DNA of 64,000 nucleotides from Candidatus Peregrinibacteria bacterium GW2011_GWF2_43_17 (GCA_000999315.1 LCFW01000004.1:5540-69539); one strand, 5' to 3'; positions 8,454-61,958 are shown, counted from the stretch's first letter. Program-made: numbers and translations. Notes: generated from the sequence alone by a model not told the origin.

Positions 8454-9672
8454 CGCGACCGATTCTCGAACCTCTACAATAAGCCGTCCCGCTAGGCGGG
8501 ACACCGCAATCGACTTTCTCGTCATCGGCTCGGGCGCCGCGGGCCTTAATTTCGCGCTATCCGCATCCAAATATGGCAAGGTTTTAGTGATAACCAAGAA
8601 GAAAATTTCCGATTCCGCAACAGAAAAAGCTCAAGGAGGAATTGCCGCAGTCCTAAATAAAAACGATTCGTTCACATCTCATATAAAAGACACACTCGTC
8701 GCAGGCCATTACAAGAACAAAAAATCGGCAGTCGAATATATTATAAAAAAAGGTCCGGCAGTCATCGCACACCTGAAAAAACTCGGAGTGAAATTCGACA
8801 AAGATTTACGCCGCGAAGGAGGACACTCTGCTCGCAGAATTTCTCACGTCGCCGACAACACGGGTAAAGCGATAGAAGACGCCCTCATCAAAGCTGTCAA
8901 AAAAAATCCGAACACCGAGATCCGCGAATACACGAAAGCCTTAAAAATAATCAAGAAAAACGGCTCGGCAATCGGCATAATCGCAAGCGATGAACAAAAA
9001 AATTGCACATACGAAATCCGAGCAAAAGCAATGATTCTCGCAACCGGCGGGATCGGTCAAAAATTCAAATCGACAACCAACCCGGAAATATCAACCGGCG
9101 ACGGCATCGACATGGCAAAAAAAATCGGCACACGCCTTGCCGACATGAATTACATCCAATTTCACCCAACAGTCTTAAACGCTCCGGGAACACCAAAATT
9201 CCTATTAACAGAAGCTCTTCGCGGAGAAGGCGCCAAAATCGTAAACGAAAAAAAAGAACGATTCATAAATGAACTTCTCCCTCGCGACACAATTTGCAAA
9301 GCAATGGAGAAACAGATAAAACAAGGTCATAAAATCTTCCTCGATTTCACGCACAAAAAAGCCTCTTACACCAAAAAAGCTTTTCCATACGTATATAAAA
9401 ATCTTAAAAAATACGACTTCGATCTGACAAAAGACCTTATCCCAATCGCACCAGCACAACACTATCTCTGCGGAGGAATCGCAGTTGACCTACAAGGCAG
9501 GACATCCATCCCGGGATTATATGCATACGGCGAAACAGCAAGGACCGGCCTTCATGGAGCAAACAGACTTGCATCAAATTCACTGTTAGAAGCAATTGCC
9601 ACAACTATGGAAACGCCAAACGGGATAGTCCGATATTTGTCTTCAAACCCTCTCGAATTTCGCACAAAATAA
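8419..9672 (+). CDS. nadB: L-aspartate oxidase-like flavoprotein, C-terminally short
   Basis: DFLVIGSGAAGL (FAD), AQGGIAAV, EGGHSARRI, TTNPEISTGDG, QFHPT, EALRGEGA and HGANRLASNSLLE motifs. The ORF stops about 25 aa after the last motif, so the usual C-terminal helical domain of about 90 aa is absent. Confidence 0.8.
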   Translation: MKSESSSRKVANATDSRTSTISRPARRDTAIDFLVIGSGAAGLNFALSASKYGKVLVITKKKISDSATEKAQGGIAAVLNKNDSFTSHIKDTLVAGHYKNKKSAVEYIIKKGPAVIAHLKKLGVKFDKDLRREGGHSARRISHVADNTGKAIEDALIKAVKKNPNTEIREYTKALKIIKKNGSAIGIIASDEQKNCTYEIRAKAMILATGGIGQKFKSTTNPEISTGDGIDMAKKIGTRLADMNYIQFHPTVLNAPGTPKFLLTEALRGEGAKIVNEKKERFINELLPRDTICKAMEKQIKQGHKIFLDFTHKKASYTKKAFPYVYKNLKKYDFDLTKDLIPIAPAQHYLCGGIAVDLQGRTSIPGLYAYGETARTGLHGANRLASNSLLEAIATTMETPNGIVRYLSSNPLEFRTK

Positions 9673-9676
9673 CATT

Positions 9677-10771
9677 TTACGCATCAGTCCCTCGTTTGTT
9701 CCCCACCATCCTCATCGCCTGATCCTCAATCGTCAATTTTTCAATCATATCCCCGATATTCCCATCCATAATCGAAGGAATATTGCTGAAATTCACATGG
9801 ATTCTGTGATCGGTAACCCTATCTTGAGGAAAATTATAAGTCCTGATTTTATCCGACCTGTCACCGGAACCGATTTGGCTTAGACGAGCCTCGCCAAGCT
9901 CTTTCTGACGTTTCTCTTGCTCTGCCGCATACAAACGCGACCTCAAAATGGACATCGCTTTAACCTTATTCTTAAGCTGAGATTTCTCATCCTGACATTG
10001 AACAACCAAACCGCTCGGCAAGTGAGTAATCCTAACAGCCGAATCGGTAGTATTGACACTTTGCCCTCCGCATCCACCGGATCTAAAAACATCAATTCTC
10101 AAATCCTGATCGCTTATCTTAATTTCAAGTTCTTCAACTTCAGGCAAAACAACAACAGAAGCGGTAGAGGTATGTATCCTGCCTTGAGCTTCTGTCGCAG
10201 GCACTCTTTGAACTCTGTGAACACCACTCTCATACTTCATCCGACCATAAGCTCCTTCTCCGTTAACCTTAAAAATAACTTCTTTAATACCATGATCGCT
10301 GTTACTCCTGCTCATCAACTCAACCTTAAACCTCTCTCTTTCAAGATACTTCATATACATCCTCATAAGCTCTTCGCCAAACATAGATGCCTCTTCCCCC
10401 CCCGTTCCGGCACGAATTTCAATAATACAATTCTTTTCATCGTTTGGATCTTTTGGTAAAAGTTCGACCTTTATTTGTTCTGAAAGTTTTTCGACCTGCT
10501 CTCTCGCACCCCCGAGCTCTTCTTTCGCCATCTCCCTCATCTCCTCATCATTTTCGGTCTCCAAAATACCCTCCGAACCGGCAATAATTTGGGACACCTT
10601 CTTAAACTCTTGAAAAAGAGCAACCACTTTCCCAAGTTCCTTATGCCTCCTGCCGGCACTGGCATATTCGCGAGAATTGGCAATCAACTTGGGATCACCA
10701 AGACCGGATTCGAGTTTCAGAAACTCGTCCTCGATTTCCTGCAACTTCTTTATGTGTAGTTCGTCAATCAT
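9677..10771 (-). CDS. prfA: Peptide chain release factor 1
   Basis: GGQ motif ([24 protein letters not shown]) and the RF1-type PAT tripeptide ([14 protein letters not shown]). Confidence 0.95.
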
Positions 10772-11606: not shown

Positions 11607-11810
11607 CTAATAATGTTGCTTCCTTGCTCTTTCAGCACGGTATTTGGCGGCCATAATAGCGTATTTTTTCTGAGCTACACGACTACGCTTTTTCTTCTTG
11701 AATTTTTTCGCCTTACTTTCAAGAATTACTCGGCTTTTGCCAACAACTTTATTGAAAATATTAACCAGTCTGTCGTTCGAAATCTTGCTATGTTTTATAA
11801 CTCCTATCAT
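11607..11810 (-). CDS. rpsU: Probable 30S ribosomal protein bS21
   Basis: A 67-aa basic protein, MIGVIKHSKISNDRLVNIFNKVVGKSRVILESKAKKF..KKRSRVAQKK, that follows the S21 pattern. GGAGG lies 10 nt upstream of ATG 11810. Confidence 0.5.
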   Translation of the reverse strand: MIGVIKHSKISNDRLVNIFNKVVGKSRVILESKAKKFKKKKRSRVAQKKYAIMAAKYRAERARKQHY

Positions 11811-11886
11811 CTTAAAGTCACCTCCCTTCGAAATTATTAAATAAAAAAGCACGGGTATTTTACCTGTACAGGGGATGAAGTCAACC

Positions 11887-12192
11887 TTAAACTTTCTTAA
11901 AAACTCCTTTCATAAATCTCACCACATCTTCGCTCAAGGCATAAACTTTTCCTTCCACAACCCTGAGAATCGCGCAATCCACGTCATCCGAAAGATTGAT
12001 ATTTTCCTCAAAAACCCAGTGATCGCCTTTCATTCTTTTAAAAACATACGTCGCAATACCCTTTGATTTCTTATTCAACTTATCAATAAATTGCCTGAAT
12101 TCATCTGAAGTCGCAACAAACAAATCCTGAGACTCGCAAGCAGCCTCAAACACAAGCTCCTCATCGTCATTTAGATCGAAAACAAAATTCAT
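11887..12192 (-). CDS. Hypothetical protein (101 aa, acidic)
   Basis: Open frame only; no motif recognised. Confidence 0.4.
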   Translation of the reverse strand: MNFVFDLNDDEELVFEAACESQDLFVATSDEFRQFIDKLNKKSKGIATYVFKRMKGDHWVFEENINLSDDVDCAILRVVEGKVYALSEDVVRFMKGVFKKV

Positions 12193-12247: not shown

Positions 12248-12420
12248 CTAAAGGAACCTCTGAAAAATGTGGTTCCGTTACGAAATTCTCATTCTTTCGA
12301 GCGAAAATAGCGAAAACCGACGAAGTCGTCCCGCTTAGCGGGACGTCGAGGAGGTCTGAGCTGTTTGCAGCCGAAAGATGGGAATTGCAGTAGGAAGTAT
12401 GTTTTTCAGAGGTTCCCTAA
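12248..12420 (+). repeat. Palindromic intergenic element, copy E1 (173 nt, MITE-like or structured RNA)
   Basis: 15-bp perfect terminal inverted repeat GGAACCTCTGAAAAA/TTTTTCAGAGGTTCC, with imperfect pairing continuing inward. The arms 12253-12305 and 12345-12416 are 53/53 and 72/72 identical to the reverse complement of 50527-50579 and 50297-50368. TA lies on both flanks. It sits 30 nt downstream of the gyrB stop. Confidence 0.8.
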
Positions 12421-12450: not shown

Positions 12451-14364
<1,914 letters not shown>

Positions 14365-33481: not shown

Positions 33482-35260
33482 ATGTGCGGAATATTTGCCT
33501 ACTTAGGTCCAAAATCAAACTCGGCGCAAATTGTCCTCGAAGGACTTAAAAAACTCGAGTATCGCGGATACGACTCTTGGGGAATCGCATGCAGAAGGGA
33601 TTCCGGCGAAATCGTAATCGAAAAACACACGGGCAAAATTTCAGACGTTTCAAGTTTAAAAAAAGAGTTAACCGAAGAACCGGCACACATCGCAATCGGC
33701 CACTCAAGATGGGCGACCCACGGCGGCGTAACAGATATGAACGCACACCCGCACGCAAGCGAAGAAAAAGAAATAGTAATCGCACACAACGGAATTTTGG
33801 AAAACTACGAATCGCTCAAGAAAGATTTAATCGAAAAAGGTCATAAATTCGTCTCCGAAACCGATACGGAAGTTTTCGCACATCTGATTCAGGAAAACAT
33901 CGGCGAAGGATTTGAACAAGCTTTCAAAATCGCCCTCTCGAAAGGAGCCGGTCGTTATGCACTCATAGCCATCTCCAAAAACGAAGAAAAAATTCTAGCG
34001 GCTCGCAGAGGCTCACCACTGATCGTCGGCACCGGATCAGACGAATACTTCATCGCATCAGATATCCCCGCCTTCCTCAAATACACCAAAAAAGTGATGT
34101 ATTTGGATGATGATCAAATGGTTTCACTTGCAAAAGATGGAATCACATTCACCGACCTCAAAACAGACAAGAAAATAGAAAAACGCACGATAATAATAGA
34201 CTGGGATGAAAAAAGCGCGGAAAAAGGCGAATTCAAACACTTCATGCTAAAAGAGATAATGGAACAAAAGATGACCCTCACCCGAGCGATCAACCAAGAC
34301 GAAGAGAAAATCCTCGAAGTGGCGCAAGCGATAAAAACCGCTTACGGAACTTATATCGTAGGTTGCGGCACAGCCGGGAAAGTCGGCATGGTCGGAACAT
34401 ATCTTTTCTCGCATATCGCGCAAAAACACATCAACTTCATGTTCGGCTCGGAATTCTCAAGTTTTCTCCCGTTCATGAAAGATAAATCGCTCATGATCGC
34501 CATCTCGCAAAGCGGCGAGACGGCCGACACGCTTGAAGCTATCGAAGAGGCAAAGAAAAAAGGCGTGAAAATCGTCTCGATCGTCAACGTCGAAACTTCC
34601 ACGATGGCTCGCATCTCCGACATCGTAATCCCAATAAAAGCGGGTCCGGAAAAAGCTGTCGCCTCAACAAAAGCGACAACTTCTCAACTAGCGATTCTCA
34701 CTCTGCTCGCCTACGCGTGCGCCGGGAAACTCGACGAAGGCAAGCGCCTACTTGTCGCAACAGCAAGCCAAATCAACGACATGCTTAATCCGCGCTACGA
34801 AAATTACATCCGTGAAATCGCCGAGAAAATCCAAAACGTAGAAAGCATGTACATAATCGGTAAAGACTTAAACTATCCAATCGCCATGGAGTCAGCAATC
34901 AAACTTCAAGAAGTTTCGTACATCCACGCCGAAGGTTTCGCCGGAGGCGAACTCAAACACGGCCCAATCGCACTAATATCAAAAGGTACGCCTTGTATCG
35001 CAATCGTCGCCAATGACGAAACAAAAGCGGGAATAATTTCGAACGCAACGGAAATAAAAGCCCGCGGCGGTTACATCATCGGAGTCTCACCCGAGAACAA
35101 CTCTGTTTTCGATTTCTGGATAAAAGTCCCGGACGCCGGAATGGCATCTCCGATAGTCTCAATCATCCCAATCCAAATACTCGCTTACCAACTCGCCGTT
35201 TTACGCCAAAACAATCCCGATATGCCAAGAAATCTGGCGAAAAGTGTAACGGTTAAATAA
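33482..35260 (+). CDS. glmS: Glutamine--fructose-6-phosphate aminotransferase
   Basis: MCGIFAY (Ntn Cys), HSRWATHG, two SIS domains (SQSGETADT) and the C-terminal LAKSVTVK-type end. Confidence 0.95.
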
Positions 35261-36092
35261 ACACCCTGAGATTTTTGCTTCGTTTTTCATGCCTCAATTT
35301 ACGCAAAGCCTTCATTTCTATTTGACGAATCCTTTCACGAGTCAAATGAAACCGCTTCCCTATTTCCTCAAGAGAATATGTACACGGCTCGCCTATCCCA
35401 AACCGCAACTTCGTAACGGTTTCTTCCACCGGCGTAAGCTTCGACAAAGCTTCCTCAAGATTACCTCTCAACTCCGCTTGCGTGGAATCCAAATCAACCT
35501 TTCCCGCATCCGAATCTTCAACAAAATCTCCAACCGTATTCCGACCACCCTCTTCCATAGGCGCATCAAGAAACACGACCCCGCGATCCCATACCATAAA
35601 CTGACTAACCTCATCCGCCTCCATCTCAAGCTTGTCGGCGATCTCCTTATTGGTCGGCTCTCGTCTCAAATTTCGACATAACTCTTCCCGCGCCCGATAA
35701 ATCTTATTAACAACTTCAAGTTTATATGGAGGTATTCTAATGTGCCTCGCTTGCGACTCGATAGCCCTCACGATTGTCTGACGAATCCACCAAGTCGCAT
35801 AAGTTGAGAATTTCACGCCCCTTCTATAATCAAATTTTGTCACAGCTCTAATCAAACCTAAATTCCCCTCCTGAATAAGATCGGTCAACGGCAATCTGCG
35901 ACCGATATATTTTTTCGCAATACTGACAACCAATCTCAAATTCGCATTAATCAAAATTTGTTTGGCTATTTCCGCATCCGGTCCACCCGCCGCAATTCTG
36001 CGCGCAACTTCAATTTCATCCTCACGATTTAAACGAGAAACTTGTCCCATATTCCGCAAATACCTATTAAGCACCATCTCACCGTTTCTCAT
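35253..36092 (-). CDS. Sigma-70 family RNA polymerase sigma factor (second, short RpoD-like paralogue)
   Basis: Regions 2-4 are present: [40 protein letters not shown], and the region 4 motif [10 protein letters not shown]. At 279 aa it has no region 1.1. Confidence 0.85.
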
Positions 36093-44099: not shown

Positions 44100-44231
44100 C
44101 AACCATCAACCGACTATCCTTTAATAAACCCACACATCTCGTCAAAGCACATTCGACAAGACGACCATAACTTTCTTTTAAATCATCCTGATTTTCACCT
44201 ACGGTTTCCATAATTTTTTATAAAGGCATAT

Positions 44232-44259
44232 ATTCTACGTATTCCGGCACCCCTGTCAA
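44232..44259 (-). promoter_or_regulatory. Candidate sigma-70 promoter of the PRMT operon (TTGACA-16 nt-TAGAAT)
   Basis: On the minus strand, TTGACA lies at 44259-44254 and TAGAAT at 44237-44232. It sits about 20 nt upstream of the first small ORF ATG (44212). Confidence 0.45.
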
Positions 44260-44319
44260 CCTCTTTCTCCCCTTCAGTCAAGCTTTTATAGTATAATTAA
44301 TTATCATAAATTTGAAAAT

Positions 44320-44514: not shown

Positions 44515-44711
44515 AAACGACTGAAGCTTTCTTTCAGTCCCAAGTCACCACATCCGTCATTCGGATTTCCACCTATGGTTTTCGTGCTTTTTTACAAAGA
44601 TCTACGTCTTACATATTCCGACACTTCTGTCAACCTTTTTCTCCCCCCATCCTCAACTTTTCCATTAAAATACTTAAAGTTCCTAGGACCTATATACTCT
44701 TAACTACCCCC

Positions 44712-50007: not shown

Positions 50008-50063
50008 CATTGAGTGACTCTGCAACGCTACGGAAAGCGAAGCTTTAGTGAATCAACACCAGG

Positions 50064-50132
50064 TTTTTTGTGTTGTCTCGAGCAACTCCACAGCGCTACC
50101 GTTCCATGCTCCAAGAGAGACAACACAAAAAA
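50064..50132. repeat. 16-bp perfect inverted repeat with 37-nt spacer, abutting the tRNA-Arg 3' end
   Basis: TTTTTTGTGTTGTCTC (50064-50079) pairs with GAGACAACACAAAAAA (50117-50132). Confidence 0.6.
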
Positions 50133-50134
50133 AC

Positions 50135-50211
50135 TGGTGCGCCCGGAGGGAATCGAACCCACAACCCCCGGTTCCGAAGACCGGTGCTCTATCCAATTGA
50201 GCTACGAGCGC
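50135..50211 (-). tRNA. tRNA-Arg (anticodon UCG), CCA encoded
   Basis: The reverse complement is GCGCTCG-TA-GCTC-AATTGGATA-GAGC-A-CCGGT-CTTCGGA-ACCGG-GGGTT-GTGGG-TTCGATT-CCCTC-CGGGCGC-A-CCA. It folds as a cloverleaf with one G-U in the acceptor stem and one T-T mismatch in the T stem. Confidence 0.88.
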
Positions 50212-50292: not shown

Positions 50293-50583
50293 CTAAGGAA
50301 CCTCTGAAAAACATACTTCCTACTGCAATTCCCATCTTTCGGCTGCAAACAGCTCAGACCTCCTCGACCAGGCTGTCCGACAATGAACTTTTTTAAGAAA
50401 ACGCATTGTTTTTAAATTTGCTTAATAATTCGCAATGCTTTTTGCTATCTGTTGCACAGAATAACATTTTACGCGTCAATCCTTCGCTTGTTTAGGACCG
50501 TCCTCCAATTTCATTGTCGGACGGTCTTCGCTCGAAAGAATGAGAATTTCGTAACGGAACCACATTTTTCAGAGGTTCCCTAG
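50293..50583 (-). repeat. Palindromic intergenic element, copy E2 (291 nt; inverted relative to E1, different and larger core)
   Basis: The arms 50297-50368 and 50527-50579 are 100% identical to the reverse complement of the E1 arms. The 158-nt core (50369-50526) is unrelated to the E1 core and is bounded by its own 13-bp inverted repeat, GTCCGACAATGAA (50375-50387) / TTCATTGTCGGAC (50510-50522). TA lies on both flanks. The right end supplies the last four codons and the stop of the 729-aa ORF. Confidence 0.8.
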
Positions 50584-52758
50584 CATTATCATTTCCCACA
50601 GCTCCATGCATATATCTCCCCTATCCCTTCCTTCATCCGGCATGAAATATCCACCTTCCTCCTCAACCAAGATCCCTAAATCAAAAGCCAACTTCACATA
50701 TCCGGCATACCAAGCCGTAGAATAAGTATCCTTATAAGGCATCCCGTCGGAAACATCTTCATCTTCCGACACTTCATAGCCGTAAGCATTCAAAAGCATC
50801 TTCACCGCCTCAACCTTATTTACAGTGTCTTCGGGATGAAAATAACCGTCCGAATACCCGGAAACCCATCCTTCCTCTTTGGCGTAACAAACATATTTCG
50901 CATACCAATCATCATCGACATCCGGGAAACAATCTTTGTATTCATCGGGATCGGAAGTAAGCCCCAACCCTTCGACCAATATCTTAAGAAGTTCCGCCCT
51001 GTTCACAGTATTATTCGGGTAAAAATTCCCATCATCGTAACCATCTATAACTCCCATCTCCCACAAACCCATAACCGCATCATAAGCATCATTCGTAGAC
51101 TCCAAATCACCAAAAACAAACTCCTCCGTATAACCGGCGATCTCCGACGATGAAATCAAAAGCTCGTCATCCTCGGAGTAAGCCTCGATTGTAAAATAAT
51201 AAATCGTATCTGGAGCAAGTTCGCTTATTGTAGACATCACCGTCCAAGCATTTTCCACATATTCCGATCCGATATACTCACCCGAAACATCGCCGAAATA
51301 CAAAATATAATGATCTATATCCAGTTGAGAAAGCCTGTTCCATTCCAAAGTAATGGATCCGTCATCATAAGACAAAACTTCCAAAATCAATTCATCAACT
51401 TCTCTAACCTCATCTCCGGTACCCACATCTTCCCCTTCTTTATCCGTATCGCCGGTATCTATCTCGGCACCCGAATCCGCTAACGACACCTCTTCGCTTT
51501 CATCAAAATCTCCGAACTCGGCGGAATAATAATAAGCATACCCTGTATCAAAAGTCAGAACCCCGCTCCCCATTTCCGTCGTAACGGGAGAAACAATCAC
51601 GTACACAATATCAAAATCTGAGGCATCCTCAAAAACAAACTCGGAATACGTCGCATTAACATCCGACGTTTCCTCTTCAACTTTTGTCAGATAAAAATTT
51701 CCAGAAGAGTCCGCAGGAACGAAAGTGACAAGCGTTTCAACAAAATCATTTTTCGTAATGGTAAACTTAAGATCGTCCTCGGTCACGGAAGAGGTGTCAA
51801 AACCTATGTAATTCGATCCATACAACGCCGGGAAAGCTTGCGGATGAGGCATTTTATTTTCGACAGGATAAGAACTCCACAATCGTATTAAACTGACATC
51901 GGGATAATTTTCACCTTCCTGATAAGTTTCATCATGAGCCAAATTCCAAATCGTAAATTCCCTGTAAACTTCGGGCAACTCATCCCCAAGAATTTCAACT
52001 ATCTCCGAAACGGAATTGTAAACCGTTAAAACCCCTTTGGCTCCGACATCTTCACTCTCAAAATAAGTCTCCCAAATATCCACCAAAACCTCGTCATCTT
52101 CATAATATTCCGTCAAAAATATCGGCCATATTCCGAGCGCATATTCGAACAAAGTCCCATTAGGAGCAATTCCGGCAAAAATCGAATAATCGGGATAAGC
52201 AAAATAATCCTGTAAATAAGTTAAAATAATATCAGCCTCATCATACACATACTCTTCCGCCCAAACCGCAGTAGCTTCCGCGAAATTCAAACTCTGATAA
52301 GTCTCCAGAAAATAAGGGTCGTAAGAAAACTGTATACAATGCATAAATTCATGAGCGATAGTCGATTTCATCAAGTCGGAAGTCAACCAAACATCCACAG
52401 CTATATAAGAAGTCAAATCTGGCAAAGACCAAGTAGTCCCTATAGATCCTTCATACAAATACTCATATTCATCATCAAAAATAATCGGGATATACCCGCT
52501 TTCTATCGGAGGATCGAATCCCAAATCATCAATTTCCCTATCCCAACTTTCTTCGGCATAAACACCGACATCTTCAACCGTATCCGGTATTCCATCCGAA
52601 TCGGAATCGACCTGAACTTGAACTATTTTGTCGTACTCTATTTGAAAATGTTCGGTATAAAACGCGTACTCTTTAAACTCACCGGTTTCGGCAAAAGCAA
52701 CCGCGGGAAGAAAGAATAATGCCAATCCGATAAATAGGAGAATCGCTTTTGTTTTCAT
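50569..52758 (-). CDS. Secreted putative zinc metallopeptidase with FN3-like domain and three C-terminal SLH-like repeats
   Basis: Signal peptide; HExxH (TIAHEFMHCIQF); an FN3-like segment (LEWNRL..YYFTIEAY); C-terminal repeats of SLH character (FGDL...YDAVMGLWEMGVIDGY, FPDVDDDWYAKYVCYAKEEGWVSGY, YKDT..AWYAGYVKLAFDLGI). Confidence 0.7.
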   Translation of the reverse strand: MKTKAILLFIGLALFFLPAVAFAETGEFKEYAFYTEHFQIEYDKIVQVQVDSDSDGIPDTVEDVGVYAEESWDREIDDLGFDPPIESGYIPIIFDDEYEYLYEGSIGTTWSLPDLTSYIAVDVWLTSDLMKSTIAHEFMHCIQFSYDPYFLETYQSLNFAEATAVWAEEYVYDEADIILTYLQDYFAYPDYSIFAGIAPNGTLFEYALGIWPIFLTEYYEDDEVLVDIWETYFESEDVGAKGVLTVYNSVSEIVEILGDELPEVYREFTIWNLAHDETYQEGENYPDVSLIRLWSSYPVENKMPHPQAFPALYGSNYIGFDTSSVTEDDLKFTITKNDFVETLVTFVPADSSGNFYLTKVEEETSDVNATYSEFVFEDASDFDIVYVIVSPVTTEMGSGVLTFDTGYAYYYSAEFGDFDESEEVSLADSGAEIDTGDTDKEGEDVGTGDEVREVDELILEVLSYDDGSITLEWNRLSQLDIDHYILYFGDVSGEYIGSEYVENAWTVMSTISELAPDTIYYFTIEAYSEDDELLISSSEIAGYTEEFVFGDLESTNDAYDAVMGLWEMGVIDGYDDGNFYPNNTVNRAELLKILVEGLGLTSDPDEYKDCFPDVDDDWYAKYVCYAKEEGWVSGYSDGYFHPEDTVNKVEAVKMLLNAYGYEVSEDEDVSDGMPYKDTYSTAWYAGYVKLAFDLGILVEEEGGYFMPDEGRDRGDICMELWEMIMLGNL

Positions 52759-58785: not shown

Positions 58786-59576
58786 TGTATCCAATATTAT
58801 TTGAGATAGGTCCGTTCACATTACACTCTCTATGGCTTTTTGTGACAATCGCGTTCATTGTGGGAATCATATCTTTTGCAAAAATAGCAAAAAGACAAAG
58901 ACTCGATCTCGGCATGTTGTTCAACCACGGAATCAGCATCATCTTCATAACTCTTCTGATATCCAGACTGACATTCTTCCTGGGAAATCTGCAGTATTAT
59001 ATGCCAACATTTTCGCTCCACGGACTTTTGAGCTTTTTCTTCATAATAGATAAAGGCCTGTCTTTCTGGGGCGCACTCGCGGGCATGTTGATAATGTTCG
59101 GAGTTGTAAGTTTAAAAAGAGAAGAGAGTATCTTGAAGTGGCTAGACGCGCTAATCGTACCTTTGGGAACAGGCATAGTTATCGCCAACTTCGGACAACT
59201 TTTGGACGGACAAGCTTACGGTATTCCGACCAATCTCCCTTGGGGTATCACTTATGAAAGTATCAATGTTAAATACACCGTCCCGGTACACCCAACACAA
59301 ATTTACTCGATGTTATACGTCTCCGGCATTATCAGCATTTTGAAAAAATATCGAAAACACGAATTCCTAAAACACGAAGGAAATCAGACCCTGATAGCCA
59401 TCACATTATACTCTTTCATTAGATTCTTAACGGAATTTTTGCGAGGAGATGATGTGTCGGAAATCTTTGGCATAAGAATAGCAAGCGCAATTTCATTGGT
59501 AATATTTTTTATTTCTGGATATTGCTTGTACAAAAGGATAAAATCTTTCAAGAAAAAACCTATAATTACAGACTAA
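58785..59576 (+). CDS. lgt: Prolipoprotein diacylglyceryl transferase
   Basis: A polytopic membrane protein with Lgt-type motifs (GPFTLH, ANFGQLLDGQAYGIPT.LPWGI, YSFIRFLTEFLRGDD). Confidence 0.8.
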   Translation: MYPILFEIGPFTLHSLWLFVTIAFIVGIISFAKIAKRQRLDLGMLFNHGISIIFITLLISRLTFFLGNLQYYMPTFSLHGLLSFFFIIDKGLSFWGALAGMLIMFGVVSLKREESILKWLDALIVPLGTGIVIANFGQLLDGQAYGIPTNLPWGITYESINVKYTVPVHPTQIYSMLYVSGIISILKKYRKHEFLKHEGNQTLIAITLYSFIRFLTEFLRGDDVSEIFGIRIASAISLVIFFISGYCLYKRIKSFKKKPIITD

Positions 59577-60004: not shown

Positions 60005-60622
60005 CTAGAAGATCTTCGCAATTTTGCATTTGATCTTCCCGGCAGGCACAACGACATCAACTGTATCCCCTGTTTTATGCCCCATAATTGCATTGCCTAT
60101 TGGGGATTCGTTGGAAATCCTGTTTGCCATCGGATCAGCCTCGGTTGAACCAACTATCGTATACTCTTCGTTATCACCTTCTTTTCCTGCCTTAATAATT
60201 CTTAAAACAACTTTCGTACCCAAATTTACAACTTTTGTACCCGGTTTGTCTTTTTTTTCGGAAATAACTTTGGCATGCTTTACCTTCTCTTCAAGTTCTC
60301 TGATTCTGCCTTCAACGAAAGCTTGCTCATTTTTAGCCTCTTCATATTCGGCATTCTCGGAAAGATCACCATAAGAAATCGCTTCCTTAAGCCTTTGTGC
60401 AACCTCTCTTCTGCGAGTCGTCTTTAAATGTTCAAGTTCGTCCCGAAGTTCTTTTAAACCTTCCCTGGTAACATAAACAACCTCGTCACCATCGATAGAA
60501 ACTACGGGATCGCCAGTAGTAACATCATCATCTCCAAAACTGGCAGAAGAACTATCGGCCGGATCTTCTTCATCCGTAAAATCATCATCGCCCCATCCCG
60601 TATTTGCAAGAATCAATGTCAT
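60005..60622 (-). CDS. greA: Transcription elongation factor GreA with acidic N-terminal extension
   Basis: [17 protein letters not shown]...[27 protein letters not shown] (coiled-coil finger) plus the C-terminal FKBP-like domain. The ATG at 60622 is preferred because the longer track ORF runs into the E3 repeat arm. Confidence 0.88.
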
Positions 60623-60640
60623 AAATTTTAAATTAAATTT

Positions 60641-60810
60641 TAAAAGACGTCTGCAAAAGTACAATTTTAATACGAAATATGCAATCTTTGAGCGAAAATA
60701 ATGAAGCGCGACGAAAACGTATCAGGGAAAGATACGATGAGAAGCGATGAATTATTTGTAGCCAAAGAGTGCATATTGCAGTAAAAAAGGTACTTTTGCA
60801 GACGTCTTAG
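60641..60810 (+). repeat. Palindromic intergenic element, copy E3 (170 nt; diverged homologue of E1/E2)
   Basis: 19-bp perfect terminal inverted repeat AAGACGTCTGCAAAAGTAC (60644-60662) / GTACTTTTGCAGACGTCTT (60790-60808). It shares internal blocks with E1 (TACGAAAT, CTTT(C)GAGCGAAAATA, CGACGAA, TTTG(C/T)AGCC(G)AAAGA, ATTGCAGTA) in the same order and spacing. The rpoD stop codon lies in its right end. Confidence 0.7.
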
Positions 60811-61958
60811 TTGTCTTTTATACGAACGCTGGTCGGATGCTCGCGAAGTTTCTGAAGAACTTTCGCTTCAATTTGTCTAATTCTTTCTCTTGTAACACCA
60901 AACTCCTTCCCAACCTCTTCAAGAGTGTGGCCGATACCATCTTTAAGCCCGAATCTCATCTCAATAATCTTTCTCTCACGAGGAGAAAGATATTGAAGCA
61001 TATCATGAATATTTTCCTTAATTAACTGCTTATTTGTTAAATCCGCCGGAGAAAGCGCGTCGTCATCTTCAATAAAATCTCCAAGCTTACTATCTTCTTC
61101 GGCACCAACCGGAGCCTCCAAAGAAACTATATCCTGAGAAATTTTCAAAACATGTCGAACCTTCTTGATATCCATACTCATTTCAGCCGCCAACTCTTCG
61201 ATCAAAGGCTCACGACCAAGCTCTTGTACAAGCCTTCTTTGCGTATGCGTAAGCTTGTTGATAGTCTCAACCATGTGGACCGGAATACGAATCGTCCTGG
61301 CTTGATCGGCAATGGCGCGAGTAATCGCCTGCCTAATCCACCAAGTTGCATAAGTTGAAAACTTAAAACCTCTGTCCGGATCAAACTTTTCAACAGCCCT
61401 GAACAAACCTATATTTCCTTCTTGTATAAGATCCAAAAAAGAAAGACCTCTACCAATGTATTTTTTCGCAATACTGACAACAAGTCTCAAGTTCGCCTCG
61501 GCAAGCGCCTTTTTGGCAGACTGATCGCCTTTCTCAATCCTTCGCGCAAGTTCAGCCTCTTCTTTCGCAGTAAGCAACTTAACTTTCCCTATTTCACAAA
61601 GATACATCCTTATCGAATCGTTCGCTATTTCCTGAAGTTGAATTTGTCTATCAGCCTCTTCGGTTGCCGCCTCTTCAGCTCCATCATCTTGTATTAAAAG
61701 TTCATCTTCCTTGGCGTTATCGCCCCAAATCATGGAGTCCTTAACATCCATAACTTTTATACCCAAATCCATGAAAACGGCATAAATCTCATCGAGAAGC
61801 ATGACGTCCTCCTCAACCGAAGGAACAGCCTTAACAAGCTCCTGATGCGTTACAAAACCGCGCTGCTTGCCTTTTTCAATAAGAGCACGGACCTCAGGCG
61901 GAAACTTAGCCAGTTTCTCGTCGGAGATACCGGTAATAAATTTTCTCGTTCTTGCCAT
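60807..61958 (-). CDS. rpoD: Primary RNA polymerase sigma factor
   Basis: Regions 1.2-4.2 are present: [69 protein letters not shown], and the region 4 motif [10 protein letters not shown]. It lies immediately downstream of dnaG. Confidence 0.93.

Follow-up and report, generated by a model that had tools for sequence, protein, structure and literature searches.

Is the long palindrome that lies between rpoD and greA in Candidatus Peregrinibacteria bacterium GW2011_GWF2_43_17 a control element of these two genes, or is it a repeat that came to lie there by insertion? In the window, by which we mean the whole stretch of 64,000 nucleotides that was analysed, the original prediction had described this element, E3, as a diverged third copy of a palindrome whose other copies are E1 and E2, and had proposed that it could act as an rpoD terminator or attenuator, or as a greA leader structure. 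It placed E3 at 60641-60810 (170 nt), bounds that contain the element and are slightly wide; the exact bounds are 60644-60808 on the plus strand of the window, a length of 165 nt. E1 and E3 are indeed similar in length, at 166 and 165 nt rather than the 173 and 170 nt first given. The orientation of the repeat family on the plus strand places E3 antisense to both rpoD and greA, and the locus is made up as follows.

60005..60622, minus strand: greA, 205 aa from a conserved ATGACA start
60623..60643, minus strand: native AT-rich spacer UUAAAAUUUAAUUUAAAAUUU, from E3 to the greA ATG, homologous to the spacer of a sister species
60644..60808, plus strand: E3, a type-B copy (nhmmer; covariance model 187 bits, E 3e-38; folds)
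60644..60662, plus strand: left terminal arm of E3, AAGACGTCTGCAAAAGTAC, which pairs perfectly with 60790-60808
60718..60736, plus strand: apical hairpin of E3, CGTATC-AGGGAAA-GATACG, an apex common to copies M1, M2 and M3
60790..60808, plus strand: right terminal arm of E3, GTACTTTTGCAGACGTCTT, its last two bases being the AA of the rpoD TAA stop (minus strand)
60807..61958, minus strand: rpoD, 383 aa, with its TAA (60807-60809) at the same codon position (...KDN-stop) as in relatives

The palindrome is real, and far beyond chance. Its ends form a perfect 19-bp inverted repeat (60644-60662 with 60790-60808), the self-complementary terminal stem that had been predicted, and all 165 nt fold into a single long imperfect hairpin on either strand, with energies of -69.8 kcal/mol for the plus strand and -63.9 kcal/mol for the minus strand. 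Dinucleotide shuffles of E3 give about -26 to -34 kcal/mol (z for E3 about -10), and none of 200 folded as well. At the right terminus the rpoD stop codon lies where it was said to lie, overlapping the last two bases of E3; at the other end, read on the minus strand, the stem is followed by UUUUAAAAUUU, and the greA ATG stands 21 nt beyond the end of the element. The element belongs to no Rfam family, 6S RNA included: at the gathering thresholds a tRNA was the only match in the whole window, and in E-value mode around E3 the best score, 26 bits where the threshold is 249, was that of a plant miRNA model, with no match to 6S RNA.

The two neighbouring genes have features of their own. GreA has 205 aa here, compared with 201 aa in the sister species and 166-172 aa in more distant Peregrinibacteria, and the 5' end of greA (60500-60622) encodes an N-terminal extension that is acidic, serine-rich and about 35 aa longer than in the more distant relatives. 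For rpoD, the window holds a second sigma-70 paralogue at 35253-36092, which is shorter (279 aa, regions 1.2-4) and in which a 173-nt stretch (35773-35945) has 73% DNA identity to 61324-61496 in rpoD.

An HMM built from E1 and E3 found exactly three copies in the 64-kb window, namely E1, E2 and E3. The homology of E3 to the other two is supported by nhmmer (E 1e-43 to 1e-50), with the covariance model in agreement, so that E3 stands as a diverged copy of the same palindromic element; the ordered conserved blocks listed for it at the outset are also present in the copies. The two type-A copies in the window are described by the following features.

12252..12417, plus strand: E1, type-A copy, 166 nt (nhmmer, covariance model)
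50296..50580, minus strand: E2, type-A copy in reverse orientation (inverted/direct repeat search, nhmmer)
50369..50526, no strand: E2 insert, 158 nt, with its own 13-bp inverted repeat (GTCCGACAATGAA)

The arms of E1 and E2 are 99-100% identical, which points to recent copying. E2 is nevertheless not a simple copy: its central ~40 nt have been exchanged for the unrelated 158-nt insert, in which a 52-nt stretch is 81% identical to 9662-9713, where prfA meets a convergent FAD-oxidoreductase gene, the fragment resembling the 3' end of prfA. The insert looks like filler DNA captured at the broken centre of the palindrome, or else a second, nested small element.

Beyond the window, JGI metagenome contigs were scanned with a 20-base pattern from the left arm that is conserved between E1 and E3. 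This gave three further distinct copies, M1-M3, each present in two or three assemblies. The proteins adjoining them belong to the same accession series as the window proteins (KKT02xxx, HAU39-40xxx), which indicates that all six copies reside in one genome, that of Candidatus Peregrinibacteria bacterium GW2011_GWF2_43_17. This is a metagenome-assembled genome from groundwater, and its proteins include ones identical to the RpoD and GyrB encoded in the window. All copies seen are fixed in every sampled assembly (E3 in L001-L006, M1-M3 in two or three assemblies each). The same pattern run against 185,579 species-representative genomes gave only three chance matches, in unrelated taxa and with the pattern alone matching; across these genomes and the JGI contigs scanned, the E family was thus found in one species only. 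No further diverged copy beyond E1, E2 and E3 appeared when the covariance model was run over the 64-kb window with filters off, nor any further copy when nhmmer was run over ~0.55 Mb of other loci, and of four scans of viral contigs, made with the left block, the right block and each of the two end sequences, none yielded more than chance matches.

The six copies fall into two subtypes, A (E1, E2, M1) and B (E3, M2, M3), with ends GGGAACCTCTGAAAAATG and GAGACCTCTGCAAAAGTAC, respectively. Identity is 91-100% within a subtype, and about 40% of columns differ between the two. The terminal repeat of type B is 19 bp and perfect, compared with ~25 bp with wobble oppositions in type A, and the type-A arms each end in a small palindrome, GGAACC-N12-GGTTCC, of which the type-B arms have only a weak counterpart. 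An apex of the type CGTATC-AGRRAAA-GATACG is found in the type-B copies and also in M1, a type-A copy; the tip of E1 is different, perfectly palindromic and of the same length. Since M1 keeps a type-B-like tip, this apex is the ancestral one, so that the apical hairpins of E1 and E3 do differ, as had been noted, with the replacement having occurred in E1 and not in E3. Short ORFs exist in the copies, with lengths of 23, 27 and 35 codons rather than the 23-29 originally quoted; none is conserved, and there is no other coding capacity.

Other repeats occur in the window. At 50057-50139, in the interval from the secDF stop (50007) to a minus-strand tRNA (50138-50211), there is a 23-bp inverted repeat, 96% complementary, with a 37-nt loop and T/A runs, which is unrelated to the E family and looks like a bidirectional terminator. 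In addition, an 825-nt gene-poor stretch contains two 90-nt direct repeats (44183-44272 and 44557-44646), 77% identical and 374 nt apart, each carrying on the minus strand a TTGACA-N17-TAGAAT-like promoter followed by an ATG; these may be tandem paralogous small genes.

How is the palindrome maintained while its sequence changes? The covariation alignment comprised the five full copies (E2, its centre replaced, is not a full copy), for which RNAalifold gave 60 pairs in five helices. Standard pairs occupy 98.7% of the sequence-by-pair cells, a share that falls to ~42% if the 3' partners are displaced by 1-3 columns; in 500 column shuffles the observed values were never reached. Changes on both sides are found in 24 of the 60 pairs, although the independent compensatory events are fewer than 22-24 because a register shift, amounting to two paired indels, inflates the count in the terminal helix. 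The compensatory stem changes first proposed from E1 and E3 are thus borne out. The register shift separates the subtypes: type A has one additional A, type B one additional C, and each of these bases has its counterpart in the opposite arm. Interior helices are mirrored too, for example TTCTCA/TGGGAA versus TATGCA/TGCATA, and the paired indel that had been pointed out between TCTTTCG/CGAAAGA in E1 and TCTTTG/CAAAGA in E3 is real. Within a subtype, E3 and M2 show 12 differences, of which six make up three perfectly compensated pairs (G-C to A-T, C-G to G-C and C-G to T-A), five are in loops and one breaks a pair. For 12 random substitutions, the probability of three or more compensated pairs is 8e-5, and about six broken pairs would be expected against the one observed (P = 0.003).

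These comparisons support the view that the two arms co-evolve, and that it is the palindrome, rather than its sequence, that is preserved at the level of the repeat family. The suggestion of selection for the fold over the sequence therefore holds in so far as it concerns structure-preserving evolution of the family; its tie to a function at rpoD or greA is unsupported. Copies are near-identical within a subtype, and the subtypes are diverged yet fully paired, implying that the mirrored changes arose in the lineages of the element and not at the rpoD-greA locus.

Several causes for this upkeep are possible: selection may act on a folded single strand, whether RNA or a DNA transposition intermediate; both ends may have to fit the same protein; or quasi-palindromes may be corrected on a hairpin template during replication. 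All of the non-Watson-Crick oppositions within the helices are of the transition type, and G.U exceeds A.C on the family-sense strand by ~7:3 events, a bias that is weak and not significant, so that the covariation fits RNA-level selection and DNA-level causes alike. In each of the five full copies, which represent only two independent lineages, the fold of the family-sense strand is more stable than that of its complement, by 5-23 kcal/mol. Against simple homogenisation of the arms stand mismatched, purine-rich blocks that are common to both subtypes, ACGAAAT opposite ATTGCAGTA and GAGCGAAAA opposite TTTGYAGCC. DNA-level behaviour is favoured by the instability of the apex, with a new tip in E1 and 158 nt of filler in E2.

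The settings of the copies have little in common. E1 lies behind gyrB (stop at 12451), closely followed by the promoter-like TTGGAC-N18-TATAAT that belongs to the next gene; E2 is within the last codons of an SLH-domain protein gene, whose stop (50569-50571) is inside the E2 terminus; M1 follows immediately on the TAA of a lipoprotein gene; M2 is 15 nt upstream of a DUF177-like gene; and M3 is between divergent genes. At E1, E3 and M2 the family-sense strand is antisense to local transcription, and at E2 and M1 it runs with it. Such unrelated contexts and mixed orientations are the pattern of a dispersed, inserted repeat. Short direct repeats flank five of the six copies (CATA at M2, AAGA at M3, TAA at E1 and M1, TA at E2), their length not uniform at 2-4 bp; E3 has no clear target-site duplication. 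A TAR trinucleotide stands at the junction of four sites, and in three of these it is a stop codon. The borders of E3 are ambiguous, both because the AGACGTCT at its end is identical to its own reverse complement and because the empty site in the sister species has flanks that are too diverged and AT-rich.

Two of the insertion sites show further detail. The SLH-domain protein gene (50569-52758, minus strand) now ends in E2 as ...MIML-GNL-stop, with its TGA in CCTCTGAAAAA; when E2 and one TA are removed, the predicted original end is ...MIMLD-stop, so that the C-terminal residues appear to have been altered by the insertion. Just to the left of M2 (L011 11520-11545), the 9-mer TAGTCCATA occurs twice, once overlapping the DUF177-like start codon, and CATAG recurs on the right flank (L011 11709-11720); the flank duplication of M2 may be longer than 4 bp, or there may have been a local tandem duplication.

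The most direct answer to the question posed by the locus comes from relatives that have the same genes. In the sister species (JGI sample 3300013138, locus L040), RpoD is 99% identical, the DNA is 79-85% identical and the gene order dnaG-rpoD-greA-lgt is that of the window, and the rpoD-greA spacer is 35 nt long and free of the element. Homology to the window breaks off at 60805 and starts again at 60643; both have ...KDN-stop at the end of RpoD and ATGACA at the start of greA. Three more distant Peregrinibacteria (L019/L020, L021 and L023) have rpoD-greA spacers of 54, 56 and 25 nt, again without the element. E1, too, is missing downstream of gyrB in the sister species (L041), where the promoter-like TGnTATAAT of the next gene is conserved. 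E3 is thus not a conserved greA leader or rpoD attenuator. Neither role put forward in the original prediction is supported by the five related loci: an rpoD terminator or attenuator should have a counterpart at the same position, and none has the element there; a greA leader structure should be retained in spacers that in fact measure 25-56 nt and have no hairpin element. On this comparative evidence, E3 is a recent insertion missing from close relatives rather than a conserved control element of rpoD or greA. An insertion polymorphism within the population was also considered, from a 108-bp difference between L005 and the window near 59100, and was rejected when this proved to be a scaffold gap of Ns: a run of Ns at L005 4540-4575 explains the apparent 108-bp indel in lgt. 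Similarly, an N run at L018 ~11790-11890 explains why greA is not called in an assembly of a related species.

We conclude that E3 is probably one copy of a non-autonomous hairpin repeat, of the MITE, REPIN, Correia or ERIC kind, that was inserted at the rpoD stop codon. The family would consist of at least six copies of ~165-bp non-coding, end-to-end imperfect palindromes in one Peregrinibacteria genome of roughly the 1-Mb class. E3 would have been inserted at or just after the rpoD TAA, after the split from the sister species, leaving the RpoD frame, its stop codon and the native AT-rich spacer upstream of greA intact. A transposase encoded elsewhere would move the element, and the hairpin, or the two-fold symmetry of the ends, may be needed for its propagation or else be restored by hairpin-templated repair. 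Several attributes of a MITE are found, namely copies of 165-166 nt that have no coding capacity, terminal inverted repeats, six dispersed locations and empty sites. Among the ~50 proteins of the 64-kb window there is no transposase, and neither the window nor the viral contigs gave a parent element with matching ends, which would be expected to share GGGAACCTCTG and GAGACCTCTGC. Also counted against this reading are the flanking repeats, uneven in length and with no clear duplication at E3, the fixation of every copy in the assemblies sampled, which gives no sign of current mobility, and the restriction of the family, among the genomes scanned, to one species. A candidate of another kind, an integron attC site, was rejected, the ends reading RRRRAAC...GTTYYYY and not RYYYAAC...GTTRRRY, and the copies being dispersed with no cassette array.

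Among known systems, the E family comes closest to hairpin-forming miniature repeats such as Correia elements, REPINs and ERIC. MITEs derived from IS5-family and PIF-Harbinger elements, such as the Tourist-like elements, have short, TA-containing target repeats. The E family resembles them in its ends, which start with GGG or GAG, in the short TA-containing repeats (TAA, TA, CTAR-like) at four or five of the six copies and in the preference of its insertions for AT-rich gene borders and stop codons; it differs in that the repeat length varies, with CATA and AAGA at two copies, and in that its palindrome is full-length, going beyond ordinary terminal inverted repeats. The short TA-containing flanking repeats and the GGG/GAG ends are compatible with a DDE transposase of the IS5/Harbinger type. 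The ERIC or IRU sequences of enterobacteria are imperfect palindromes of ~127 bp that occur in both orientations in intergenic regions that are transcribed, with orientation-dependent effects on neighbouring mRNAs; the E family has in common with them a structure-preserving variation, and differs in sequence, host range and length.

Another parallel is provided by the Correia repeat enclosed elements (CREE/NEMIS) of Neisseria, which are 100-160-bp dispersed, non-coding repeats that can create promoters or RNase III sites (PMC2649163). Like these, the E elements have terminal inverted repeats, would form a hairpin over the whole element if transcribed, lie next to or between genes and differ in presence or absence between close relatives (PMC2649163). 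Correia elements, however, number in the hundreds and possess an IHF site and a TA duplication, compared with six known copies, 2-4-bp repeats and no evident IHF-like site for the E family; no sequence relationship is seen, or would be expected, the host of the E family being of the Patescibacteria/CPR lineage.

Which alternatives have to be weighed against a mobile repeat of this kind? The least unlikely is that the folded 165-nt hairpin, with its asymmetric purine-rich loops, is recognised as ssDNA or RNA by a dedicated protein, and that this recognition, instead of the usual binding of double-stranded ends, drives the compensatory evolution, a kind so far undescribed in CPR. The conserved mismatched blocks hint at a sequence-specific ligand, and a plain MITE model leaves them unexplained.

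Next in order, and unlikely, is a REPIN-like origin, by which the folded single strand, an ssDNA hairpin or clover, is the substrate of a Y1 transposase of the RAYT or IS200-like type encoded once elsewhere in the genome, so that the hairpin itself is directly selected. REPINs are hairpin-forming miniature mobile DNAs in which compensatory arm changes are frequent and in which conservation is stronger for length and pairing than for the sequence of the spacer (PMC3116915), a description that the E family shares as regards its compensated arms. Such selection would also agree with the full-length palindrome, in which the interior helices are compensated as well as the ends, with the small palindrome at the end of each type-A arm and with the better folding of the family-sense strand in all five full copies; an unstable apex, too, is expected if hairpins form in vivo. 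Yet REPs are defined by an unpaired GTAG or CGTC tag and are linked to a single-copy RAYT gene (PMC3733652), and no such unpaired terminal tag is present here: the CGTC in the end of E3 is paired, and M2 and M3 have CCTC/GAGG in its place. REPINs consist of two 20-40-bp REPs and are abundant, usually with tens to hundreds of copies, compared with the six known here; the direct repeats that flank five of six copies are unexpected for, and argue against, a Y1 mechanism; and no RAYT gene was found in the window or in the other loci retrieved. The E family falls outside the REPs and REPINs in lacking the GTAG/CGTC tag, and appears to do so in copy number too.

Although E3 is not a conserved control element, it could in principle work, or have been co-opted, as a cis-acting RNA of the dnaG-rpoD-greA transcript, whether as terminator or attenuator, as processing or stability hairpin or as greA leader; we regard this as improbable. 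The rpoD stop and the greA start enclose it exactly, and the dnaG-rpoD-greA spacers are very short in all relatives, which makes co-transcription likely. E3 would then be transcribed within this unit, and the mRNA would carry a hairpin of -64 kcal/mol, beginning within the rpoD stop codon and with UUUUAAAAUUU behind it; incidentally, this may cut read-through or create an RNase III site. The apical hairpin, followed on the minus strand by UUUUCGUCG, was flagged as terminator-like in a consensus scan, and E3 is fixed in six of six assemblies of the species. The ability of Correia elements to create promoters and RNase III sites (PMC2649163) offers a precedent.

Against this reading, the U-rich tail after E3 is native flank that the sister species also has at its empty site, and lies outside the element; no U tract follows the other copies. 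As to the signals themselves, the whole minus-strand hairpin has only UUUU, then AAAA, after it, what the scan picks out is just the inner apical hairpin with UUUUCG, and promoter and terminator sites are no more frequent than in shuffled sequence. The better-folding strand is antisense at this locus, and the same spacer lacks the element in the sister species and in three other Peregrinibacteria. In E. coli, the greA leader, part of the greA promoter region, gives rise to the terminated small RNAs known as GraL. With this leader E3 has only its position upstream of greA in common, being a repeat inserted in one species whose family-sense strand is antisense to greA.

A side effect of E3 on rpoD termination or greA expression is nevertheless possible. 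The native greA spacer has a -10-like TAAAAT at 60637-60642, so that greA may keep a -10 box of its own, with a -35-like hexamer, TTGTAC, at a 16-nt spacing that would now come from the end of the element. The consensus scan does not call TTGTAC-N16-TAAAAT, which is possibly a local accident; an outward-facing promoter of this form was rejected as a feature of the family, since it occurs at greA only and the equivalents in M2 and M3 have no -10 box. As regards initiation in general, only 5 of 52 window genes have a Shine-Dalgarno-like motif, and in many a TATAAT or TGnTATAAT box precedes the start codon by 12-35 nt, a pattern suggesting that in this Peregrinibacteria genome leaders are very short and initiation is SD-independent.

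Very improbable, finally, is that each copy encodes a structured small RNA, folded as a rod-shaped hairpin and expressed in the family sense, whose conserved internal loops bind a protein, since the conservation of purine-rich blocks (ACGAAAT, GAGCGAAAA, CGACRAAA) in the internal loops of both subtypes while the helices vary, the consistently greater stability of the family-sense strand and the excess of G.U over A.C on it, a strand bias that is not significant (~7:3 events), are set against the absence of an Rfam match (6S RNA included) and of any conserved promoter or terminator associated with the copies, the absence of copies from the sister species and the replacement of the E2 centre by 158 nt of unrelated DNA.

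A mobile hairpin repeat thus remains our preferred explanation for E3, and it removes a tempting wrong reading, according to which a conserved regulatory RNA would separate the gene of the housekeeping sigma factor from greA. A lesson for annotation comes with it, in that covariation alone is no sign of a cis-regulatory RNA when the sequence is a repeat. A full-text literature search gave no paper linking Peregrinibacteria with miniature inverted-repeat elements, and the E family may be undescribed, though of a familiar type; it documents a small hairpin-repeat family in Peregrinibacteria, whose genomes are tiny and from which few mobile elements have been described. With a ~40% difference between subtypes that are 99% paired, the family is a compact case of arm co-evolution in a dispersed palindrome, and could be used to ask whether such compensation comes about by selection on a folded intermediate or by hairpin-templated repair.
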